Below are positions 1 through 14,195 of a stretch of DNA of 14,195 nt, in pieces. The DNA lies in UHGV virus genome UHGV-1730239; one strand, given 5' to 3'. Positions within the stretch are counted from its first letter, which is position 1. The number at the start of each line of letters is the position of its first letter. A model generated the notes under the pieces. The model was given only the letters and a program-made list of their open reading frames with translations. It was not told where the DNA came from and did not search any database. The DNA comes from a virus. The position numbers and the translations under genes were made by a program.

Positions 1-13
1 GCTCTTCCGATCT
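1..13. other. Illumina adapter remnant (GCTCTTCCGATCT); technical sequence marking the contig end
   Basis: Exact match to the reverse complement of the common adapter stem AGATCGGAAGAGC at the very first bases; biological sequence starts at ~14. Confidence 0.85.
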
Positions 14-51
14 ATAAACAGGTTGAAGGTGATGCGCTTAGAATTTTTCAT
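14..51 (-). CDS. Possible N-terminal fragment of a leftward gene running off the contig end (MKNSKRITFNLFI...)
   Basis: Minus-strand ATG at 51..49 preceded by AGGAG (revcomp of 61-65) with a 9-nt spacer; the frame stays open into the adapter. Only 13 codons visible. Confidence 0.2.
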
Positions 52-101
52 TTATAAATACTCCTGAATGCTCTGTGTTAGTTTTAATGTTTCATGCTAA
101 A

Positions 102-138
102 AGCCTCCTTGCGCCAACAGGGAGGCTTTTTTATTTTT
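102..138. terminator. Rho-independent terminator-like hairpin, usable in both directions
   Basis: Stem AGCCTCC (102-108) pairs with GGAGGCT (121-127), extendable to ~10 bp; followed on + by TTTTTTATTTTT and on - by TTTT. Sits ~40 nt downstream of the minus-strand gene 171-350. Confidence 0.6.
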
Positions 139-170
139 AAAGCCATCATATAATTCTCAGTGAAAGTGGA

Positions 171-350
171 TTAACAAACTTGAACGTTAATCTTTATCTG
201 AATTTCGTATTTCTTCATTAGCTTATAGAATCCGCTTCTATCAATTCCTTCCTTCTTAAAGAAATTCTCGCCGCCTCGTTCAGTATCGCCATAAAAGCGT
301 TTAGCAATATCAACAATCATTTCACGAGTAAACTTAACAGGTCTAGCCAT
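171..350 (-). CDS. Small DNA-binding protein with resolvase-type (HTH_7-like) helix-turn-helix, 59 aa
   Basis: ATG at 350 with GAGGA 8 nt upstream; the listed 64-aa ORF begins at an upstream TTG. Protein MARPVKFTREMIVDIAKRFYGD...SGFYKLMKKYEI matches the GRPxxFT...IA...S..FYK..KK pattern of invertase/resolvase C-terminal HTH domains. Paralog of the gene at 3448-3675. Confidence 0.6.
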   Translation of the reverse strand: MARPVKFTREMIVDIAKRFYGDTERGGENFFKKEGIDRSGFYKLMKKYEIQIKINVQVC

Positions 351-449
351 AAGTAGATTCCTCAAATGTGGATTAATAAGGACAATAAAAAGAGCTTTTC
401 GCCCTCGATACTTCTATTTATAAAATGATTTTCAGAAAACCCTGTAAAA

Positions 450-573
450 CCACTGTATATCCGATCAGTGGGAGCACGAATTGCTAAAGAGAAGATTAAT
501 AATTAATCAATTCGTACATTATTCAATCGAAAAAGCACTGTATGTTTAACCAGTGCTGTATGTGTTAACAGTG
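450..573. promoter_or_regulatory. Three copies of an 18-bp operator-like element CTGTAT-N7-CAGTG; the third also fits a LexA-box pattern
   Basis: 453-470 CTGTATATCCGATCAGTG; 538-555 CTGTATGTTTAACCAGTG; 556-573 CTGTATGTGTTAACAGTG, with the last two directly tandem. Copies 1 and 2 are flanked to form CCACTG..CAGTGG and GCACTG..CAGTGC inverted repeats. 556-571 reads CTGT-N8-ACAG. Confidence 0.5.
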
Positions 574-692
574 AATCAGGGGATTTTCAGAAGTGAACAA
601 TCATTTCATGCATGTATTTATACACGAAAAAATCTTGCTTATCATCAATATGGGGATTGTTTCGAAAATTTCAACCCCTATCAACGAGAAAA

Positions 693-737
693 AGTATAAA
701 ATAATCCTTGACAGTTGTCAATACACTTGACCTAAGC
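693..737. promoter_or_regulatory. Divergent promoter/operator: palindrome TTGACA-GT-TGTCAA with a leftward sigma70-like promoter and a rightward TTGACA-N13-TTGACCTAAG motif
   Basis: Palindrome at 708-721. Leftward: -35 TTGACA (721..716), 17-bp spacer, -10 TATACT (698..693), pointing at the operator triplet and gene 171-350. Rightward: bipartite motif 708-737, no convincing -10. Confidence 0.5.
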
Positions 738-918
738 GAGAAATGACTATCAAAATTTTTGTGTGAAAATGGCGGATAACGATTATCAACCTTTATAACC
801 TATTATAGCACGGCGACCTTTTGATCATTCCTTTTAAATCATGCGATTACCGCGATTTTTGGTGATTTTATGATTAAATAATATACAAGAATTTTCTATC
901 AAAATTTTTGATGAAAAC

Positions 919-1038
919 CCTACACTACAAACCTACACTTTAAAGGGATTGGCCTACACTACACTAGCCAGTAAACCTACACTATAACACCCTCAAACCT
1001 ACACTATGAAACCTACACACCTACACTAACCCTACACT
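919..1038 (+). repeat. Iteron-like array of eight direct CCTACACT copies (consensus aAACCTACACT) with irregular 8-23 bp spacing
   Basis: Copies at 919, 932, 953, 976, 998, 1012 (variant CCTACACA), 1020 and 1031, all in the same orientation, immediately after an AT-rich tract (841-915). No ORF covers the array. Confidence 0.8.
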
Positions 1039-1223
1039 TCAATCTCATAAGTGTATGATCTTGAAAGACATTTAACCCCACAGACCATAGAATATAAAAT
1101 TCGAACTAACGTTCTCCTTTTTGCTCGTTTTCTCTCACTACGTTCAAGAAAGATCTCGCAAAAAGAATACGGCGTAGCCGTGCGCGAAGCGCCCATCAAC
1201 ACCTTCTAAGACCTGCAAGCAGG

Positions 1224-1382
1224 ATTCGAAAGGGATTGGATAGTTCGCTTCGCTCACGTTCACGCCTACGGCGTTCACTCGCTTTTGAAAGGATTTTCTT
1301 AGAAAGGGATTTAATACTAGTTACTAACTGATTCTAGTAAACGAACGAAGTGAGTAACAATCACTTTCTAGAAAGGTATTGG
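1224..1382. repeat. Second repeat family: short palindrome followed by AAAGG(G)ATT(GG), inside a GC-rich ORF-free stretch
   Basis: TTCGAAAGGGATTGG (1224-1239), TTTTGAAAGGATTTT (1284-1298), TTCTTAGAAAGGGATTT (1296-1312), TTTCTAGAAAGGTATTGG (1365-1382); an extra copy TTTAAAGGGATTGG at 939-952 lies inside the CCTACACT array. Confidence 0.6.
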
Positions 1383-1383
1383 T

Positions 1384-1412
1384 ATCCCTTCGGGATTGCA
1401 ACCTTCGGTTGC
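1384..1412 (+). other. Two tandem stable hairpins with CTTCGG centres
   Basis: ATCCC-TTC-GGGAT (1384-1396) and GCAACC-TTC-GGTTGC (1398-1412), back to back with no U-tract; candidate RNA processing/stability elements or protein-binding palindromes. Confidence 0.5.
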
Positions 1413-1611
1413 TAAATTGCTTCCTGATTATTATTTCTCCAAAAGAAAGATTCTTATATTCTAAAGATACTTCTTCGTTTTGATGATGATTTAATCAAAA
1501 CTATGAAGGAGGGCTATGCCCGACTGAATACAATCACCTTTCATAATAACAAGAATTTTCTCTTTATAAATAATATTAGATTGATTCACTTTCTTTTAGA
1601 GGATTTCCACT

Positions 1612-2079
1612 ATGAACCATAAAATGACTACCACTACTCCTTTCATCCTGTTAGGTTTTGATGCTGATAGCTTCCACAATGACAAGTTAATGAAGATGTT
1701 CCGTGAACGTGGTTATAACATCCTTTTCAATTCCGATGAATCCCATTTCTCTAGTGCATGGTATGCGTTTTGCCGTAATAAGAAGCCGACCATTGTTGTT
1801 AACGTCTTCACCGATGAAGATCGCTTAAAGTACCAGAATCTACCAGCAATTATTGTTCGTGATGATCTGCCGTTTGAAGTCCGTTCCGGTGACATTGATC
1901 TGGGTAGCTTCGTTACTGTCTATGAACTGGATGAAGCAATGTTTAACTACGGCAAAGAAACCGCTCAGGAAGCCCCAGAACAAGATGAAGAAGATGAGGA
2001 AGACGAAGACTACGCTCCAATCTGTTTTTCTTCTCAGAATGGCTTCTACGGTTACGATGAAGGCTTAGATATGCTGTAA
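1612..2079 (+). CDS. Hypothetical strongly acidic early protein, 155 aa
   Basis: ATG at 1612 with AGAGGA 8 nt upstream; coherent codon usage; C-terminal tract EAPEQDEEDEEDEDY. By eye roughly 35 D/E against 13 K/R. Confidence 0.7.
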   Translation: MNHKMTTTTPFILLGFDADSFHNDKLMKMFRERGYNILFNSDESHFSSAWYAFCRNKKPTIVVNVFTDEDRLKYQNLPAIIVRDDLPFEVRSGDIDLGSFVTVYELDEAMFNYGKETAQEAPEQDEEDEEDEDYAPICFSSQNGFYGYDEGLDML

Positions 2080-2180
2080 GTTAGGTCAACCCTTTGGCGT
2101 CTTGTCAAGGTGTATTGACAAAAATTTCTGACTTTTTATGATTATCGCACTTGACAACTTTGATTATATTTGACCTAGAT
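2080..2180. promoter_or_regulatory. Promoter/operator region with inverted repeat TTGTCAA-N6-TTGACAA, a sigma70-like promoter, and two further TTGACA-N13-TTGACCTAR motifs
   Basis: Inverted repeat 2102-2121; -35 TTGACA (2115-2120), 16-bp spacer, -10 TATGAT (2137-2142). Bipartite motif on + at 2151-2180 (TTGACA-N13-TTGACCTAGA) and on - at 2108..2080 (TTGACA-N13-TTGACCTAAC). Confidence 0.55.
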
Positions 2181-2199
2181 TTGTAAAGAGGATGTAAGC

Positions 2200-2379
2200 A
2201 TGAAAACCTTTACCCGTGAACGTGAACCAGGAGTGATCGAAACCCGCCGTCGTCGTTATGTTAAGGGCTTTGGTTGGGCTACCGAAACCGTGGATGTGGA
2301 ATATAAAGACGAATCCAAAGCACCGAAACCATCACCTTTGCAAATGGCTTTACGCGGATTGTGTGCTAACAACAAATAA
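2200..2379 (+). CDS. Small basic hypothetical protein, 59 aa (MKTFTREREPGVIETRRRRYVKGFGW...); not in the supplied ORF track
   Basis: ATG at 2200 with AGAGGA (2187-2192) 7 nt upstream, ~55 nt downstream of the promoter; host-like codon usage (cgt, ccg, gaa, acc); stop TAA 2377-2379. Confidence 0.55.
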   Translation: MKTFTREREPGVIETRRRRYVKGFGWATETVDVEYKDESKAPKPSPLQMALRGLCANNK

Positions 2380-2402
2380 GAAATAGCTCTTATAAATAAA
2401 AT

Positions 2403-2426
2403 TGTTCCGGTGGTGATGCCGGAACA
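2403..2426 (+). other. Intergenic hairpin without U-tract between the 59-aa gene and the Rha-family gene
   Basis: TGTTCCGG (2403-2410) pairs with CCGGAACA (2419-2426) around an 8-nt loop; followed by GGGAGG, not a T-run. Possible processing site or attenuator. Confidence 0.4.
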
Positions 2427-2470
2427 GGGAGGATTAAATCGCAAAACCGTTAATTAAGGGGAATTTTACT

Positions 2471-3307
2471 ATGAATACTGTTACTGCTATGACTACTAAA
2501 ACTGCTTCCGTGTCTCTGGTTGTTGATAACACCAAACCGCTGACCATGTCTACCCGTCAGATTGCTGAATTAACCGGAAAGAGTCATGATCACGTTTTGC
2601 GTGATTTTCGTAATATGATTGCTTCTATCCAAAAAGGTAGCAAACTGGTCGGAGGAGATCTCACCAATTTTGGCGAGATTGGTTTTTATACAGAAACCAC
2701 GTACAAAGATAAACAAAACCGCAATCAGCGCATGTATGAACTGGATGAAGATCTCTGTAATACACTGGTTATGGGATACGATGCACCGCTTCGCTTCAAA
2801 ATTGCTAAAGAATGGCGTTTGATGAAAGAAGGTAAAGCTAATGTTCCGGTTAATCCATATGAACACTTTGAAGAAACCGATTGGATCGAACTGGCATTAG
2901 AGAAAACCCGTGAAAATAAACGTCTGGTTGAATTACATGTTCGTAAAGCTATCGACACTCACAGCTTAACCCGTCTTCTGGGCGAAAAACGAGGCTCAAC
3001 GAAGGTACAAATGATTCTGAAAGGATTGTGTGCGGCTGGTGTTCTTGAGCGTCGTCTGGATGCTTCTGGTAAGCCTAACGGCTATGATCTGCTTCCTCCT
3101 GGTTATATGTTCGCTCGTATGTCTGCACACGGTCAGATCGAGTTCACTGCTGATGCTATCCCGCATCTCGTAAAACTCGGATTGCTTGAAGAAGAAAAGG
3201 CCGCAACTTTGAAATTGCCACAGCCGAACAACTCACGAGCAATCGTCAATAATACTGCTTTGCTGATTCGTCAGAATGCCGGATCGCTGGAACACTTCGG
3301 ACTGTAA
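2471..3307 (+). CDS. Rha-family phage regulatory protein (antirepressor-like), 278 aa
   Basis: ATG at 2471 with AAGGGGA upstream. N-terminal segment LTMSTRQIAELTGKSHDHVLRDFRNMI matches the Rha/ORF6N motif (IAELTGK.H..VLRD.R); ends with tandem stops TAA-TAA. Confidence 0.8.
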   Translation: MNTVTAMTTKTASVSLVVDNTKPLTMSTRQIAELTGKSHDHVLRDFRNMIASIQKGSKLVGGDLTNFGEIGFYTETTYKDKQNRNQRMYELDEDLCNTLVMGYDAPLRFKIAKEWRLMKEGKANVPVNPYEHFEETDWIELALEKTRENKRLVELHVRKAIDTHSLTRLLGEKRGSTKVQMILKGLCAAGVLERRLDASGKPNGYDLLPPGYMFARMSAHGQIEFTADAIPHLVKLGLLEEEKAATLKLPQPNNSRAIVNNTALLIRQNAGSLEHFGL

Positions 3308-3315
3308 TAATTTTT

Positions 3316-3341
3316 GCCCCTGAAATTCAGGGGCTTTTTTG
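3316..3341 (+). terminator. Rho-independent terminator after the Rha-family gene
   Basis: GCCCCTG (3316-3322), 5-nt loop, CAGGGGC (3328-3334), then TTTTTT (3335-3340). Confidence 0.8.
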
Positions 3342-3412
3342 TATCTACATCACGCGAATTTTCGCGCCATCTTCCACCAACCCGCCGATGGCGTTTTGGT
3401 CACCTTACAGAT

Positions 3413-3439
3413 ATAAAAAAAGCCACTCCGAAGAGTGGC
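3413..3439 (-). terminator. Rho-independent terminator for the leftward two-gene operon
   Basis: On the minus strand: GCCACTC, UUCG loop, GAGUGGC, then a 7-8 U run (A-run 3414-3421 on +); 8 nt beyond the stop of gene 3448-3675. Confidence 0.8.
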
Positions 3440-3447
3440 AAAGAGAA

Positions 3448-3675
3448 TCAAAAACCTGTTGCTTCTACGATCTGACCGTCGCCAATCTGAACATAGAATT
3501 TAATATCTAACTTCTTGATATTTTTATAGAATTGAGCTACCGATATAGCGTGCTCACTAAGAATCTGTTCTTTCGCTTCCTTCCCGCGATCCGCTGTATA
3601 GTAAGCGTAGGCAATATCAGCCATTTGTTCTTGAGTGAAACGTGCCGGACGACCGCGAGTAGCTTTAATAGTCAT
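3448..3675 (-). CDS. Small DNA-binding protein with resolvase-type (HTH_7-like) helix-turn-helix, 75 aa
   Basis: ATG at 3675 with GGAGGA 7 nt upstream; the listed ORF starts further upstream without an SD. Protein MTIKATRGRPARFTQEQMADIAYAYY...ISVAQFYKNIKKLDI carries the GRPxxFT.EQ...IA...S..FYK motif. Paralog of gene 171-350. Confidence 0.65.
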   Translation of the reverse strand: MTIKATRGRPARFTQEQMADIAYAYYTADRGKEAKEQILSEHAISVAQFYKNIKKLDIKFYVQIGDGQIVEATGF

Positions 3676-3710
3676 AGTTACTTCCTCCAAATTAAAGTGA
3701 ATGTTCACCT

Positions 3711-4313
3711 TTATTTAGAGGACTTACATTTTATCGGAAAAAGTTCTCCATCGTCAACTGACATAAAAAACTCTGCCTTAATCCCGTACTTCTTCAACCG
3801 TGAATAATATGTACCCCGACTTATATCAACCTTGCGAAGCACTTCAAAGAAGGATTTAGGATCGTTGTAATAGTGGCTGTACTTCACGTTAGCGAGTTCT
3901 ACAAACAATTCCCTTGTATCACCATAGCCTTTCTTGAAAGCCACGTTACGATAGCGTGTAATAGCGTGATTTAGTCTCTTCTGTTTCAACACTTCCCTGA
4001 TCGGTGTCCACTGCAACCGATAGATCGGACCGTCATCCACTCGATAATAACGCTTGATATCAAAATCAAACCATTCACGGACTCTCTGGAACTCTGTATG
4101 TGATGTTCTATGCTTCTTAAAGAAGTTGTGAACGTCTGTATAACCATTATCACGGTAAAATTCTATTAAAATCTCTTTCGCTTCCTCACGGCTAAACCCA
4201 GATGTTGTGTAATCGGTCTTTAAGTGCTTATGTTTTACTGGCAAACGATATTCATGATCGGTACAAGACAAGGCTAATTCTAATTCATCTCTTTCTTGCT
4301 GATTAATTAGCAT
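3711..4313 (-). CDS. Hypothetical protein, 200 aa, with C-terminal HTH-like segment ([13 protein letters not shown]); first gene of the leftward operon
   Basis: ATG at 4313 with AAGGGGGG upstream; its stop sits 35 nt before the next start. The C-terminal motif resembles the recognition helices of the two small HTH proteins. Function not recognised. Confidence 0.6.
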
Positions 4314-4400
4314 ACACCCCCCTTAAATCTTAATACCCGTATTTATCAGAAAATCAACAATTTAATAAATACCTTCATATTTCGTAATGAGGGTAATTAC

Positions 4401-6308
4401 ATGAAACTGATTTCGAACAAGGCCAAATTAAAAAAGATTCTTAAAAATGCCGCAAAATATATCACTCCACCGCCTAAACTCCTTCCGTCTGAATGGTGCG
4501 AAGCGAATATGGTGCTGGTAGATGGTCCTCAAGCTGGGGATAAAGTTAAATTGTTGTCATTCCAAAAAGGCATGATTGATGCACCTTTCCTTGAGAACAA
4601 GAAAAAGTATGTCCTGATGACCAGTGCACAGATCGGAAAGACTACCATCCTGAACGGTATCCTGTTTAACCAGATGGCTAACGATCCATGCAATATGATT
4701 ATCGGACAATCAACCGCTAAAGAAATGTCTCAATATCTCGCTGGTAAGATCCGACCGTCTATCGAAGCATGTGATGCATTAAAAGACGTTGTTACAGACA
4801 AGAATGATCGCAATGCGGTTAACAACAATAACCAACTCCAGCTAAAAACGAATCACTTCCTGTACATGGTATCGCTAACCAGTCCATCGACCCTACGTGG
4901 TAAGACCGCAAAGGTTGGATTGCTTGACGAAATCGATGCTGCTACAGCCTCAGAAGAAGGTGATCCGGTGGCACTGGCTGCTAACCGTTTAACTACCTTT
5001 GGCGATGAAGGCCGATTAGTCGTATCCAGTACCCCGACCAGTAAGCTGGGAAGCATTAACCAGCAATGGTTATCAAGCGATATGCGTATGTTTTTTGTTC
5101 CGTGTCCTCATTGCGGTAGACACCAGGTGATCGAGTGGGAAAACGTTCAATTTGAATGGCGTAACATCGATGGTAAGAACTTGCCCGATCCTGATACCGC
5201 TCGTTATATTTGCCCCCACTGTAAGCAATCATGGACAGAAGGGGAACGAATCAGGGCAGTAGCGCAAGGCGAGTGGAGAGCAACCCGTGAAAGTGAAGTA
5301 GCCGGATTCTGGATCAGCCGTTTGTATTCACCTTTCAGCACGATCCGCGCTTGTGTGGTTGATTTTAGCCATGCGTGGCAATCCTTTGATTTACAATCAT
5401 TTTATAACACCGTGTTAGGCAAGGTATACGACGATCAGGACACGGCAGTAGAAGCAAATGAACTGGAACAACTCAAAACAGATGTTTCTATCGAGAATAT
5501 CCCTGATGACGTGATTTTCTTGTGCTCAGGAATTGACCAGCAATTGGACCGCGCAGAATCTACCATCTTAGGTGTAGCGAAAGATAAGGTTTACATTCTG
5601 GATCACCGCAGCTTTTACGATCATAACTGTGAACGATATGAATCACCTGTTTGGGATCGCCTGGTTAACTTCAAGAAAACCAAATTCTATAACGTTAATG
5701 GTGAACGTGTACCAATGCTCGCCAGCTTCCTTGATACATCGAACGGTCGATTCACTCAAGCCGGATACCGTATTTGCGGCAAGTGGAAGAACCTACACGC
5801 GATCAAAGGTAGTTCATCTGGTAATGCTCCAGTGATTCCGGTTAAACCTACCCGCACAGGTGGTCATGAATTGCTTATGCTGGGTGTTAACGTTGGTAAA
5901 TCCGCTGTTCGTGAAATGCTGGTTAGAAACCTGAAAGATAATCCTCATATTGGCTTAGAAATATCAGAAACCGTTCCTGATGATTATCTCGATCAGCTTT
6001 TGAGTGAATCCATCAAGCGTACTACTACTGGCGTGCGTTGGGTGAAAAATCCAGGTAGTACCCGAAACGAGGCTCTCGACTGTCTGGTTTATAGCTATGC
6101 TGCTTCTCGCTACGTCCTTTCAAAAATGTCATGGGATAAACTCATTGCAATGAAAGATAGTTTGAACCGTGAACCAGAAGAATCCGTAGAATCTCCTAAA
6201 TCGCAATCTAACGAGCAAATCGAAGAAACTAAGCCAATCACACGACCGCAACGTCAAAACATCGCCAGACGCCCAAATAGAGGCCGTAGCTGGATAACAT
6301 CGTTCTAA
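4401..6308 (+). CDS. terL: Terminase large subunit, lambda gpA family, 635 aa
   Basis: ATG at 4401 with GAGGG upstream. Walker A-like TSAQIGKTT and Walker B-like GLLDEID; the segments GIDQQLDR and RNEALDC(L)VY match what I recall of lambda gpA (GIDSQLDR, RNEALDCFVY); CxxC pairs (CPHCG, CPHCK). Confidence 0.9.
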
Positions 6309-8442: not shown

Positions 8443-10446
8443 ATGCTTAAATTTCGCCGCGATCTTAACGGTTACGGTGGAGTTATTAATGAAGGGCATA
8501 ACGATCAATACGAATTTGAAATTGCTTTCTCAAGTACACAGCCTTATCAGCGCCAATTTTGGGATGAGCAAAATCAAGAAATGGTGGTATTAGATGAAAT
8601 TCTGGTACATACACCGGAAGCGGTTGATCTGTCTCGTCTGAATAATAACGCTCCGTTGCTGTTCAATCACAATTTCGATAATCACATTGGTGTAGTTTGT
8701 AACGCTCGAATCGATGCGGATAACGTAGGTCGTGCTCTGGTTAAGTTCTCCAAGCATGGGACTTTGGCTAATGATATTCGTAATAAAGTCATTGAAGGTA
8801 CGATGGAAAAAATTTCGGTCGGCTATGACATTAAAGAGTATCACATCGACTACGCTAAATCGCAACTCATTGTTTCTAAATGGATTCCTCACGAGATTTC
8901 ATGGGTGTCGGTGCCCGCAGACGATACGGTCGGTTTAAATCGCTCTCTAAATACTATCACAGTTAATTTGGAGGCTAAACGCGATATGACTAAAGAACAA
9001 ATCGAAGAAATCAAAGAAGAACAAGAACCCGCTCAGGTTGAAGAAACTCCGGTAGAAGAAAATAAAGAATCGGAAGTAGAAGAAACTCAAGAGCGCCAAG
9101 TTGAAGAGAATGAAGAAAATGAAAATCTCGAAGACGGAAAAGACGCTGAACATCCTGAAAGTGTTGATGATGATAGTTCAACTGTTCGGGAAGCAGAAGA
9201 AGTAAAAGAAGAACGTGAAGCCGCGCCGGTTGAAGAAGAAAAAATCGAAGAAGTGGCTGAACGTTCCGAAGAAGACGAATTAGAAATTCGCGAGATCGCT
9301 CGCGAGCTAAATATTAACGACGAAGAATTAGAACGCGCATTGGCAGTTAAAGACATGACGCCGGAAGCATTCCGCACTAAGGCACTAAATAATCTCGTCA
9401 ATTCTCAACGTAATAACGAACAACAAATTAAGGACTCTAAAATGGAAAAAACTTTTGACCTGAATGCTGTATTTCGCTCTCTGATCGATGGTGACACTCT
9501 GGGTGCTCATGAAGCTGAATATTCCGCGATGGCTGCTACTGCAACTGTACAGCGCGGTCGTGCTGCTCGTAGTGGCTCTGTATTCGTTCCGGCTGCTGCT
9601 CTGCGTGCTGCTGCTGCTGGTAACACTAAAGCTACTCTGGAAGCTGTAACTGATGAAAAACTGCTGACTGAATCCTATGTAGAAATGCTGATGCCTCAGT
9701 CCGTTCTGGGTCGTCTGGGTGTGACTGTCCTGTCTGGCCTGAATAGCCCGATCGCAGTACCAAAAATGACATCTTCTTGTGTTGACGGTTTCGGTTTCGT
9801 TTCGGAGAACGGCGAGGCACCAGAAAATAAAGCAGGTTTCGCAAACGTGAAAATGGCTCCTAAGACTTTCGCAGGGGGCAACCCAATTTCGCGCCTCAGC
9901 CTCAAAACCGTTCCGGGTATCGCAACCCTGATCACTGATCACATGAACAAAGCTGTTCGCATCAAACTGGAACAACTGGTGCTGTCTGATAAAGAAAACG
10001 CTAACGGTCCGAAAGGTCTGATTAAACATCTGGTTGATGCAAGCCGTGTTGAAAAGAAAGCTGCTTTCACCTACAAAGACTTCCTGAAAGAAATCGCAGC
10101 ACTGACTGATGCTGGCGTTCCGGCACAGTCCATCAAATTTGCCATGAGCGGTGCAACTGCTGCTGAACTGGAATCTACCCTGAAAGATAACGGCGTTTCC
10201 GGTTATATCATCGAAAACGGCAAACTGGCTGGTTACGACGTAGTTACTTCTGGTGTTATTCCGGCTGGCCACATCGTTCTGGGTGACTTCTCCGCGATTA
10301 CTATCGGTGAGTGGGGCGGTCTTGAGGTAGATCTGGACGATTCAACCTACCGAGCACAGGGCGCTATCGTTCCGCGTATCTGGGTAGACCTGGACTTCAC
10401 CGTAGTTCAGCCGGAAGCTCTGAAAGTTCTTCATATCTCTGAATGA
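8443..10446 (+). CDS. Single-ORF fusion of prohead protease (HK97 gp4-like), acidic scaffold-like linker and HK97-fold major capsid protein, 667 aa
   Basis: ATG at 8443 with AAAGGTGA upstream. N-terminal ~170 aa carry prohead-protease motifs (LLFNHN..HIGVV, ISVGYD, ISWVSVPADD). Residues ~180-330 are an E/D/K-rich predicted coiled coil. The C-terminal ~335 aa look like an HK97-type capsid protein ending in ...VQPEALKVLHISE. Single TGA stop. Confidence 0.85.
   Translation: MLKFRRDLNGYGGVINEGHNDQYEFEIAFSSTQPYQRQFWDEQNQEMVVLDEILVHTPEAVDLSRLNNNAPLLFNHNFDNHIGVVCNARIDADNVGRALVKFSKHGTLANDIRNKVIEGTMEKISVGYDIKEYHIDYAKSQLIVSKWIPHEISWVSVPADDTVGLNRSLNTITVNLEAKRDMTKEQIEEIKEEQEPAQVEETPVEENKESEVEETQERQVEENEENENLEDGKDAEHPESVDDDSSTVREAEEVKEEREAAPVEEEKIEEVAERSEEDELEIREIARELNINDEELERALAVKDMTPEAFRTKALNNLVNSQRNNEQQIKDSKMEKTFDLNAVFRSLIDGDTLGAHEAEYSAMAATATVQRGRAARSGSVFVPAAALRAAAAGNTKATLEAVTDEKLLTESYVEMLMPQSVLGRLGVTVLSGLNSPIAVPKMTSSCVDGFGFVSENGEAPENKAGFANVKMAPKTFAGGNPISRLSLKTVPGIATLITDHMNKAVRIKLEQLVLSDKENANGPKGLIKHLVDASRVEKKAAFTYKDFLKEIAALTDAGVPAQSIKFAMSGATAAELESTLKDNGVSGYIIENGKLAGYDVVTSGVIPAGHIVLGDFSAITIGEWGGLEVDLDDSTYRAQGAIVPRIWVDLDFTVVQPEALKVLHISE
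9442..10446 (+). CDS. Candidate nested product: major capsid protein alone, from an internal in-frame start (334 aa)
   Basis: In-frame ATG at 9442 with AAGGA 7 nt upstream; from here codon usage switches by eye to the highly-expressed style (ctg, cgt, ggt, gct, tcc). A second in-frame ATG at 8986 has GGAGG 11 nt upstream. Confidence 0.4.
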   Translation: MEKTFDLNAVFRSLIDGDTLGAHEAEYSAMAATATVQRGRAARSGSVFVPAAALRAAAAGNTKATLEAVTDEKLLTESYVEMLMPQSVLGRLGVTVLSGLNSPIAVPKMTSSCVDGFGFVSENGEAPENKAGFANVKMAPKTFAGGNPISRLSLKTVPGIATLITDHMNKAVRIKLEQLVLSDKENANGPKGLIKHLVDASRVEKKAAFTYKDFLKEIAALTDAGVPAQSIKFAMSGATAAELESTLKDNGVSGYIIENGKLAGYDVVTSGVIPAGHIVLGDFSAITIGEWGGLEVDLDDSTYRAQGAIVPRIWVDLDFTVVQPEALKVLHISE

Positions 10447-12254: not shown

Positions 12255-14195
12255 ATGCAAAGTCTACAGCACAAACGATCCGGTGTTGCTGGTAAAAAAC
12301 CGACGCCGGAACAATTACAGGTCGGTGAATTAGCAATAAACTTAGTCGACCATGTAATTTACACTAAAGATAAAAGCAATGCGGTAGTGCAAATCAGTGT
12401 TTCCCCAGAAAGTCATAATACTTTAAACAAAAAAGTAGACACCAACAAGACGAACACCGATAAAGTTATTGTCGCAAATAAAAAAGAAGCTGCTAATAAT
12501 CTGGCTACCGCTAAAACTGAATTAACTAACACTATCAACACCAAAGACGCCGCAATCAATAAACGTGCTGATGGTATCAATACCGCTGTTTTGAATCTAC
12601 AGAAGATGGTAGCGGCAAATAAAACTGATGCAGATAACAAGATTACTTCTTTAACATCGACTGTCACCGCAAACAACACAGCGATCAATAAAAAAGTTGA
12701 TGCAAACAAGATGCAAGCCGACAAAGAGATCACCCGCTTAGATGGTCGTATCGATGATGCTGTTTTCCGTGGTGAATTGCCAACTGATGCAAATTTAGAT
12801 ACATATGGTCCACTTCCTGAATTTGTCGGTGTATGGGGCAAATCAACGTCTACTAACGCAACTCCGGCTTATAGTTTCCCGGAAGATGGCGCGGTTGGTA
12901 TTCTTGAAGTTTTCTCCGCTGGTAACTTTGCGGCAACTCAGCGTTATACGACGCGCTACGGTAATATTTTTGTTCGTAACCTTTCCGCTAAATGGAATGG
13001 CTCTAATGGTCCGTGGACGCCGTGGCGTAATATTCAGATGGGTACTCGTCCGCTTTCGACGTCAATTAATCTTAATGATTTTGGCGGTGTTGAGCATTTT
13101 GGCTTATGGCGAAACGGGTCTACATCAATTGCGTCGTTAGATCGAAACTTCCCAGAAGCAGGGGCAGACGGTCGAGGATTGTTAGAAGTTTTTGAAGGTG
13201 GTAGTTATTCCCGTATGCAGCGTTACACAACCATTAACGGTCGTGTGTATATTCGTACTCTCGCCGCTTCGTGGGATGCATCCGCGCCGAGATGGGAAGC
13301 GTGGAAAAAGGTTGGTCTTTTTACCCCGTCTGAAATTGGCACATACAATAAAGCGGAAATTGATAAGAAAATTTCTGATTTGGACAATGCGCTAGTATCT
13401 AAACCGATCCAGCCGTTACCGGACGTATGGATACCGTTTAATGATTCTCTGGATATGATCACAGGATTTGCGCCGGGATATAAAAAAATTACTGTTGGTG
13501 CGGATGTTGTCACTATGCCTAGTGACAAGATTGTTAGCTTTACTCGTGCATCAACCGCTACATATATTAATAAATCTGGTAGGCTTAGTGTCGCTGCAAT
13601 TGATGAACCACGATTTGAAAAAAATGGTTTATTGATTGAAGGCCAACGAACTAACTATTTTGTTAAATCTAACACCCCTGCCGAATGGACTAGCACAAGC
13701 AATATTGATAAAAGCAATAATGGCGTTGATGAATTTGGTTTTTCATTTGCAAAAATGAAAACTAAGGAAAATATGACGGGTCAATCATCCGCTCTTAGTT
13801 TGCATACATGCAGCGCATCCCGTGGTGTTGATGTTAGTGGTGATAATAAGTTTTGCACAGTTTCTTGTCGTGTTAAGGCTCCTGATGGCCTCCGTTGCCG
13901 TTTACGCTTTGAAAAATACGATGGATCGGTTTACACCTTTTTGGGTGATGCTTATTTGACTTTCGGTAGCACATTGACAATAGAAAAAACTGGTGGTGCT
14001 GCTAATCGTATTACGGCTAACGCTACTAAAGATCCGGTTACTGGTTGGATTTTTTACGAAGCGACGATAGAAGCGGTTGAAGGGGAAACCTTGATTGGTG
14101 CAATGATTCAGTATGCACCGAAAAAAGGCGGTGTAACCGAAGCAGGGGATTATATCTATCTTGCCACACCACAATTCGAAAATGGTAGTTGTGCG
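12255..14195 (+). CDS. Tail fibre protein, 3'-partial (at least 647 aa, continues past the window end)
   Basis: ATG at 12255 with GAGGTGA upstream; the frame is open to the last base and is absent from the ORF track only because no stop falls in the window. Contains an N/K/T/A-rich coiled-coil-like shaft (~12400-12760) and two ~48-aa repeats with motif LEVF...QRYTT..G..(F/Y)(V/I)R.L.A.W....W..W resembling the knob domain of pyocin/phage tail fibres. Confidence 0.75.
   Translation, partial: MQSLQHKRSGVAGKKPTPEQLQVGELAINLVDHVIYTKDKSNAVVQISVSPESHNTLNKKVDTNKTNTDKVIVANKKEAANNLATAKTELTNTINTKDAAINKRADGINTAVLNLQKMVAANKTDADNKITSLTSTVTANNTAINKKVDANKMQADKEITRLDGRIDDAVFRGELPTDANLDTYGPLPEFVGVWGKSTSTNATPAYSFPEDGAVGILEVFSAGNFAATQRYTTRYGNIFVRNLSAKWNGSNGPWTPWRNIQMGTRPLSTSINLNDFGGVEHFGLWRNGSTSIASLDRNFPEAGADGRGLLEVFEGGSYSRMQRYTTINGRVYIRTLAASWDASAPRWEAWKKVGLFTPSEIGTYNKAEIDKKISDLDNALVSKPIQPLPDVWIPFNDSLDMITGFAPGYKKITVGADVVTMPSDKIVSFTRASTATYINKSGRLSVAAIDEPRFEKNGLLIEGQRTNYFVKSNTPAEWTSTSNIDKSNNGVDEFGFSFAKMKTKENMTGQSSALSLHTCSASRGVDVSGDNKFCTVSCRVKAPDGLRCRLRFEKYDGSVYTFLGDAYLTFGSTLTIEKTGGAANRITANATKDPVTGWIFYEATIEAVEGETLIGAMIQYAPKKGGVTEAGDYIYLATPQFENGSCA

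Follow-up and report, generated by a model that had tools for sequence, protein, structure and literature searches.

The interval upstream of the large terminase gene

UHGV virus genome UHGV-1730239 was analysed as a stretch of 14,195 nucleotides (hereafter the window), which according to the RefSeq annotation of Escherichia coli forms the left portion of a prophage of ~35.8 kb integrated in hicB. Our subject is the terminase of this prophage and the location of the gene encoding its small subunit. The gene of the large subunit, terL (4401-6308, plus strand), heads the rightward structural operon. Its product is a large terminase of the lambda gpA family that carries both gpA domains, an N-terminal ATPase (PF05876, E 2.8e-56, residues 54-292) and a C-terminal nuclease (PF20454, E 2.6e-44, residues 301-571), and it also matches phrog_15 (E 2.6e-136). 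The 1093-bp interval upstream of terL (3308-4400), which extends from a Rha-family gene (stop at 3307) to the ATG of terL (4401), does not contain any gene on the same strand. The initial annotation had remarked that no small terminase gene lies directly upstream of terL, and both the list of open reading frames (ORFs) and the sequence bear this out. The only credible genes in the interval are two, both on the minus strand, which code for proteins of 200 amino acids (aa; 3711-4313) and 75 aa (3448-3675), and the same two leftward genes were recovered by independent gene calls on more than 20 contigs. The missing same-strand gene is a matter of annotation and not of chance statistics.

Both leftward genes start with ATG, that of the 75-aa gene being preceded by a GGAGG ribosome-binding site; the mechanical ORF of this gene runs further, to a GTG at 3708, and would give 86 aa. 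The gap between the two genes is 35 bp, and the 75-aa gene is probably co-transcribed with the 200-aa gene. An intrinsic-terminator-like hairpin followed by a T-run (3439-3422, minus strand) closes this unit on its left, and on its right a divergent intergenic region of 87 bp (4314-4400) separates the 200-aa gene from terL. With a terminator of their own and a start in 4314-4400, the two genes thus make up a separate leftward cassette. The divergent region has no more than weak hexamers of the sigma-70 type. Its sequence hardly differs among the E. coli relatives, and a Proteus relative and a metagenomic relative retain mainly its TTAATAAATA-like core. The Rha-family regulator (2471-3307, plus strand; PF09669, E 2.3e-17) is the last rightward gene before the cassette, and its unit is closed by another intrinsic-terminator-like hairpin (3316-3334, plus strand).

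A candidate small terminase gene outside the window

None of the proteins encoded in the window matched a small-terminase family in Pfam or PHROGs. One of the possibilities raised by the initial annotation was that the small subunit is encoded elsewhere, and inspection of the rest of the prophage, which it had recommended, revealed a gene matching phrog_57 beyond the left edge of the window. This gene codes for a protein of 184 aa and is found on the same strand as terL at 14224-14778 of locus L022, that is, at about -2469 to -1915 in the coordinates of the window. The gene ends 1.9 kb short of the window's left edge, leaving 6315 bp between its stop codon and the ATG of terL. The match of the 184-aa protein to phrog_57, annotated as 'terminase small subunit', has an E value of 1.6e-10 and covers residues 24-168. 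Lambda Nu1 scores E 2.5e-76 in phrog_57, which is therefore Nu1's own family; the identity of the Nu1 query sequence was confirmed by its score over the full length of PF07471 (E 2.9e-100). A profile of the 184-aa family, built from 16 members, aligned with Nu1 (hhalign 93.6%, E 2e-7, residues 5-94) over the winged helix-turn-helix (HTH) of Nu1 and the helix that follows it. In the AlphaFold2 (AF2) model the 184-aa protein has the topology beta-alpha-alpha-beta-beta-alpha, a winged HTH, continued by long helices and a disordered acidic tail, so that both the N-terminal winged HTH and the ensuing helical region of a Nu1-type small terminase are present.

A few database sources name close homologs of the protein 'terminase small subunit', and in 60 of the 60 E. 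coli genomes listed the gene is labelled 'hypothetical protein'. Pfam and PHROGs searches turned up no other small-terminase-family protein anywhere in the prophage, leaving the 184-aa protein as the only candidate. Judging from its sequence, we infer that it is a diverged Nu1-type small terminase, and it would be expected to work with this TerL; its gene is referred to below as terS.

The position of terS is conserved. Among the 25 complete E. coli genomes that have coordinates for both genes, terS is on the same strand as terL in all 25, at a distance of 5721-7689 bp upstream (median 6262 bp). In the prophage described here, opposite-strand operons sit between the two. The Proteus and metagenomic relatives, in which the homologs of the 200-aa protein are 68% and 42% identical, respectively, show the same order: terS, a ~320-aa gene, a ~60-aa gene, a long non-coding stretch, a ~155-aa gene, a 74-aa gene, a ~200-aa gene and terL. 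The terS unit is closed by its own terminators, and hence terS is not co-transcribed with terL. The finding of a Nu1-family gene 6.3 kb upstream of terL, at a conserved spacing, upholds the proposal of a small subunit encoded elsewhere and makes another one, that packaging works without a canonical small subunit, unnecessary.

The closest deposited phage is DCP80, whose TerL is 44% identical. It encodes a homolog of the 184-aa protein that matches two small-terminase PHROGs, phrog_57 (E 9.4e-20) and a further one (E 1e-7), and scores 20.5 bits against PF07471, where the cut-off is 30. This homolog follows the endolysin gene and lies 24 kb downstream of terL. The DCP80 record itself (PQ671644.1; loci L001 and L035) is 141 kb long and classified as Straboviridae. 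Its first ~26 kb hold a gpA-type terminase, a lambda-type head and tail module and the Nu1-like gene, and the remainder is T4-like (motA, rIIA, ndd). The record has the look of a chimera assembled from two phages.

Several features were observed upstream of terS. The segment at L022 13975-14223 is conserved and promoter-like, with a TTGACA (-35 hexamer); a consensus promoter scan reported no plus-strand site upstream of terS. An inverted repeat, TGCGTAA-N15-TTACGCA, is located just before the terS ribosome-binding site and is kept from E. coli to Proteus. The region could be a promoter/operator or part of cos, and on the analogy of lambda alone it would be the first place to look for cos. A GC-rich patch, GCGGGCGGGA, is found ~175 bp before the terS ATG. 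It was considered as cos and set aside: its likeness to the lambda cohesive end was judged by eye only and it is poorly conserved in relatives, so we make no claim of a cos there.

A family of small basic proteins beside terL and in the control region

The 200-aa protein is a tandem duplication of a unit of ~70 aa, composed of three helices and a beta-hairpin, behind an N-terminal extension of ~35 aa. Its two halves align to each other (84.9%, E 6.5e-6), and its AF2 model (predicted local distance difference test score, pLDDT, 74) displays two copies of the unit behind a disordered N-terminus. The 75-aa protein consists of a single copy with an N-terminal RGRP motif, and its family aligns to repeat 1, the first half, of the 200-aa family (hhalign 94.2%, E 1.1e-7). 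A third paralog of the unit is a basic protein of 58/59 aa (171-347, minus strand), which aligns to the 75-aa family (hhalign 94.8%, E 5.1e-8). Its gene opens a leftward operon (59 aa, ~331 aa and 80 aa) that runs out of the window. Since the paralogs combine helices and a beta-hairpin in one unit and are all basic (isoelectric points 9.0-9.6, with 9.3 for the 200-aa and 9.0 for the 75-aa protein), DNA binding by the three is plausible.

Homologs of the 200-aa and 75-aa proteins are few. Among 5.8 billion proteins there were 42 for the former and 13 for the latter, all from the same prophage lineage, and when 1.84 billion representatives were scanned in full with HMMER, the 200-aa profile recovered nothing but its own family and fragments. 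Neither protein had a family match in Pfam, PHROGs, NCBIfam or PADLOC, and neither matched a sequence in the PDB, where terminase chains stayed unmatched even at E 10. For the 200-aa protein, tblastn against phages gave no match, and a Foldseek search of its model against viral predicted structures gave nothing at E <=0.001; structurally it resembles generic HTH folds only. The place of its gene beside terL is conserved among relatives, including those from Proteus and the metagenome. We consider the two proteins to be probable DNA-binding regulators, for example a repressor of late or early promoters expressed in lysogeny. This reading is put forward because their cassette runs leftward as an autonomous unit, head-to-head with the first late gene, and because no CI-type repressor is recognisable in the prophage.

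The initial annotation had also suggested that the 200-aa protein might serve as small terminase from the opposite strand. This was not borne out: profile searches of the 200-aa and 75-aa proteins against small-terminase families, carried out as it had advised, gave no match, the 200-aa protein resembles generic HTH folds only, and it does not covary with the repeat array described below. What it had named as refuting its remark was a canonical small terminase gene elsewhere together with clear unrelated homologs of the two proteins; a gene of canonical type does exist elsewhere, and the clear unrelated homologs do not, the two proteins being orphans.

A repeat array that varies with the neighbouring ~331-aa protein

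Between the leftward 59-aa/~331-aa/80-aa operon and the rightward early genes there is a non-coding stretch of ~1.25 kb. It contains an array of CCTACAC(T) repeats (CCTACACT; about 919-1038, plus strand) with eight copies in the same orientation, against 0.93 expected in the window. Counterparts of different sequence occupy the same place in relatives, namely TTGCCCCT(GAA) in other E. coli copies, ATCCCTAG in Proteus and TTCTAGT in the metagenomic relative.

Natural mosaics among the related prophage loci were used as a covariation test. In L019 the 200-aa, 75-aa and Rha proteins are 100% identical to those of the window, yet the array is of the TTGCCCCT type, and the same array type is found in L003, L011 and L013, where TerS is 98%, the 200-aa protein 100% and TerL 100% identical. 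TerS is 98-100% identical across the two array types. L013 and L019, both of the TTGCCCCT class, share only 60% identity in the 59-aa paralog. What does change with the array is the N-terminal domain of the neighbouring protein (313-342 aa in relatives; ~331 aa here), whose first 150 residues are 99-100% identical within an array class and at most 27% identical between classes. As the array type changes with this domain while TerS and the 200-aa and 75-aa proteins stay the same or nearly so, the array tracks the ~331-aa protein and not the 200-aa, 75-aa, Rha or TerS proteins. Two roles that had been considered for the array, as TerS sites (cosB-like) and as binding sites of the 200-aa or 75-aa proteins, were rejected on the basis of these mosaics.

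The ~331-aa gene occupies window positions 1-52 and continues to the left (L022 15749-16744). Its product is an acidic coiled-coil protein for which Pfam, PHROGs and NCBIfam gave no family match. The array and this protein look like an exchangeable pair, either of the iteron/initiator type, as at an origin, or of the centromere type. The terminator after the Rha gene (3316-3334) includes one copy of TTGCCCCTGAA, which is the repeat unit of the alternative array type. Looking at this hairpin over 3311-3328, we observed that TTTTTGCCCCTGAAATTC is identical over 18 nt to the TTGCCCCT-type array repeat of sister prophages, and that a single TTTTTGCCCCTGAAATTC copy is present in all checked loci with this Rha allele.

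Upstream of the leftward 59-aa/~331-aa/80-aa operon we found, within 120 bp, three LexA-box-like sites (CTGTAT-N7-CAG) at 453-468, 538-553 and 556-571, where 0.09 are expected; none of 200 shuffles reached three. Conserved also in the variant L013, the sites suggest that the operon is under direct SOS control. On the other side of the array, the non-coding sequence at ~1050-1600 is rich in short GC hairpins with UUCG/GAA loops and contains the motif (T)AGAAAGG(G/T)ATT repeatedly. Its minus strand has a far more stable predicted fold than shuffled sequences (z score -5.4, against -2.7 for the plus strand). Proteus and L026 have stretches of similar style, as does DCP80 upstream of its terL. Rfam reported nothing credible in window positions 1-4500. 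The stretch may be a structured RNA or DNA element.

The LexA-like sites ahead of the operon that begins with the 59-aa paralog suggest an SOS-wired control circuit built from the 200-aa, 75-aa and 59-aa protein family, which is a speculative idea. Its specific form, an undescribed prophage switch in which the 200-aa and 75-aa proteins would act as maintenance repressor and the SOS-induced 59-aa protein as an antagonist that displaces or titrates it, we regard as rather unlikely. If true, such a switch would explain why no recognisable CI-type repressor or classical antirepressor partner is present in the 35.8 kb, and also the placement of the entire control module between terS and terL.

The prophage and its distribution

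Read in the orientation of terL, the prophage starts with attL, an LprI-family moron (minus strand), the 184-aa terS gene (plus) and small membrane ORFs (plus). These are followed by the 80-aa/~331-aa/59-aa operon (minus), ~1.25 kb of non-coding DNA with the CCTACACT array, and the 155-aa, 59-aa and Rha genes (plus). Then come the 75-aa and 200-aa genes (minus), terL with the head, tail and lysis genes (plus), and the recombinase with three small genes (minus), up to attR. The portal encoded downstream of terL is of the lambda family, and a large serine recombinase of 559 aa is encoded at the far end of the prophage. Searches of the whole 35.8 kb with family profiles did not recognise any replication genes or a CI-type repressor. 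The reference copy of the prophage carries an IS1 in its lysis region.

Except for its first 13 bases, the window matches the chromosome of E. coli O6:H16 2014EL-1346-6 (NZ_CP024232) at 100% identity. These bases (GCTCTTCCGATCT) are the 3' tail of an Illumina adapter and not phage DNA, and NZ_CP024232 reads differently there; the left end of the window, which falls within the ~331-aa gene, is an assembly artefact. Many E. coli contigs encode TerL and the 200-aa protein in exactly this form, and of 5426 complete genomes of the species 56-63 (~1%) carry the lineage. Relatives are integrated beside ghrA/ycdX instead of hicB, and thus at least two different integration sites are used. In the copy described here, hicB, which encodes the antitoxin of the hicAB toxin-antitoxin pair, is split by the prophage into L022 12524-12853 and L023 31325-31441. 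After the insertion its frame runs on into phage DNA and still gives a product of 116 aa.

Two further observations concern the structural genes. A single ORF of 667 aa (8443-10446) joins a prohead serine protease (PF04586) with an HK97-type major capsid protein (PF05065), a protease-capsid fusion. When phage and plasmid collections were searched with the nucleotide sequence of the whole window, one patch of 240 bp was returned and nothing else. This patch (13425-13662) is ~80% identical to T5-like tail-fibre genes and lies inside an 821-aa tail-fibre gene with the label 'pyocin knob domain', which suggests horizontal exchange of a receptor-binding segment. Literature searches on this prophage and on a split arrangement of terS and terL found nothing specific.

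Proposed arrangement and alternative explanations

Taken as a whole, the observations are best explained by a small subunit that is encoded elsewhere, with the 200-aa and 75-aa genes most likely coding for regulators and not for packaging proteins, an explanation that we hold with good confidence. The element would be a temperate prophage with a lambda-type holoenzyme, formed by the 184-aa Nu1-like subunit and the gpA-type TerL, and the two subunits would be expressed from separate transcription units. The gap between terS and terL holds the regulatory and early module. This module comprises the leftward operon preceded by LexA boxes, the iteron-like array matched to the ~331-aa protein, the long structured non-coding stretch, the rightward early genes including Rha, and the leftward 200/75-aa cassette. 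The cassette would be transcribed from the 87-bp region that it shares with terL and would stop at its own terminator.

Several results weigh against this explanation. The 184-aa protein has no match to PF07471 (Phage_Nu1) at E <=0.1 and none to any NCBIfam terminase model. The profile search of PDB sequences with its family did retrieve N-terminal domains of small terminases (6hn7_B, 1j9i_A and 7lw0_A), weakly, at E 0.12-0.8, and all its matches there were above E 0.1. The cos site was not located, as the ends of the ~35-39 kb assemblies fall at or beyond the prophage boundaries and share no common internal point. No operator motif was found for the 200-aa and 75-aa proteins, 4314-4400 being without obvious repeats and conserved only in its AT-rich core. 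Finally, the covariation test presumes a type-specific protein that reads the array, and L019 and L028 keep two stray CCTACACT copies beside their TTGCCCCT arrays.

The lack of a PF07471 match is one reason to ask whether the 184-aa protein is instead a regulator of the MerR/excisionase type, for instance a directionality factor of the serine recombinase encoded near attL, the true small subunit being unrecognised or absent. The winged HTH of Nu1 is indeed related to excisionase/MerR-type domains, Nu1 also matches phrog_66 ('excisionase and transcriptional regulator'), and the 184-aa gene is near the prophage end. However, the phrog_57 match extends over residues 24-168, well past the HTH, and the 184-aa protein matches neither phrog_66 nor an excisionase family at E <=0.1; its sole match in the integration category is a marginal one to phrog_32871 'integrase' (E 0.047). 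The gene also keeps a fixed distance from terL whatever the integration site, and the DCP80 homolog, a member of two small-terminase PHROGs, comes right after the lysis genes, like terS of the phages ep3 and phiRSP (see below). We therefore find this alternative unlikely. If, conversely, the 200-aa protein, the 75-aa protein or both were the packaging-recognition factors, as a non-canonical small terminase or an accessory that binds cos, encoded head-to-head with terL, the 184-aa protein would be dispensable or have another role. No terminase profile matches the two proteins, the Sf6 match comes 58th, behind many unrelated HTH domains, and the genes are on the opposite strand with a terminator of their own, outside the late operon. 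Moreover, in L028 the 200-aa protein is 91% identical while TerL falls to 59%, showing that the 200-aa protein does not co-evolve with TerL, and a Nu1-family gene is present in every relative. On these grounds a packaging role of the two proteins seems quite improbable.

The odd gene order could also be a product of decay in a defective or degenerating prophage. The absence of recognisable replication genes and of a CI-type repressor, as well as the IS1 in the lysis region of the reference copy, would fit this. Of the alternatives weighed here it is nonetheless the one to which we give least credence: between E. coli and Proteus the order is retained with intact reading frames although protein identity is 42-68%, the element is found at no fewer than two integration sites, and its modules recombine as mosaics, which points to an active, exchanging phage population.

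We thus retain the explanation of a diverged Nu1-type subunit encoded apart from terL. It carries a lesson for annotation, since a missing terS beside terL should not be read as a sign of a TerS-less phage. What remains of interest at this locus is less the packaging than the unannotated control module, a compact and almost wholly unannotated region with LexA-like boxes, a swappable array/protein pair and a duplicated mini-HTH family.

Comparison with known systems

The nearest known systems for the 200-aa, 75-aa and 59-aa proteins include small tri-helical HTH domains, such as Myb/homeodomain-like domains, phage repressors and KorB, and the 'GRP' arm of the Hin type. As to the terminase, Escherichia phage vB_EcoM-ep3 and Ralstonia phage phiRSP, whose TerL proteins are 28-30% identical, have an annotated terS after the lysis genes. 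Their order is lysis-terS-terL, with terS overlapping terL or within 0.8 kb of it, unlike in the lineage described here, where terS is flanked by the integration module and the early module. DCP80 resembles ep3 and phiRSP in having terS right behind the lysis genes. The simplest reading is that lysis-terS-terL was the ancestral order and that an early/regulatory module later came between terS and terL.

P2 and 186 carry the genes for the small (M) and large (P) terminase subunits in two different, divergent late operons, and thus provide a precedent of cos phages with non-adjacent, separately transcribed terminase subunit genes. In P2, however, the two lie only a few genes from each other inside the head-gene cluster, and their products come from other protein families, whereas here a whole early/regulatory module intervenes.

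In lambda, Nu1 is found directly upstream of A, in one operon and next to cos. The prophage described here resembles the lambda gpNu1 and gpA system in its gpA-type TerL, its small subunit from the PHROG of Nu1 and its lambda-family portal. It differs from lambda in that terS and terL are 5.7-7.7 kb apart, in separate transcription units with a regulatory module between them, and in that the 184-aa protein is too diverged from Nu1 to match PF07471. The gene order is unusual, the biology is ordinary, and the view of packaging is unchanged. The arrangement is best described as a variant of the lambda-type two-subunit terminase with a diverged Nu1-type subunit, and the lineage as an example of a lambda-type terminase whose subunit genes are unlinked.

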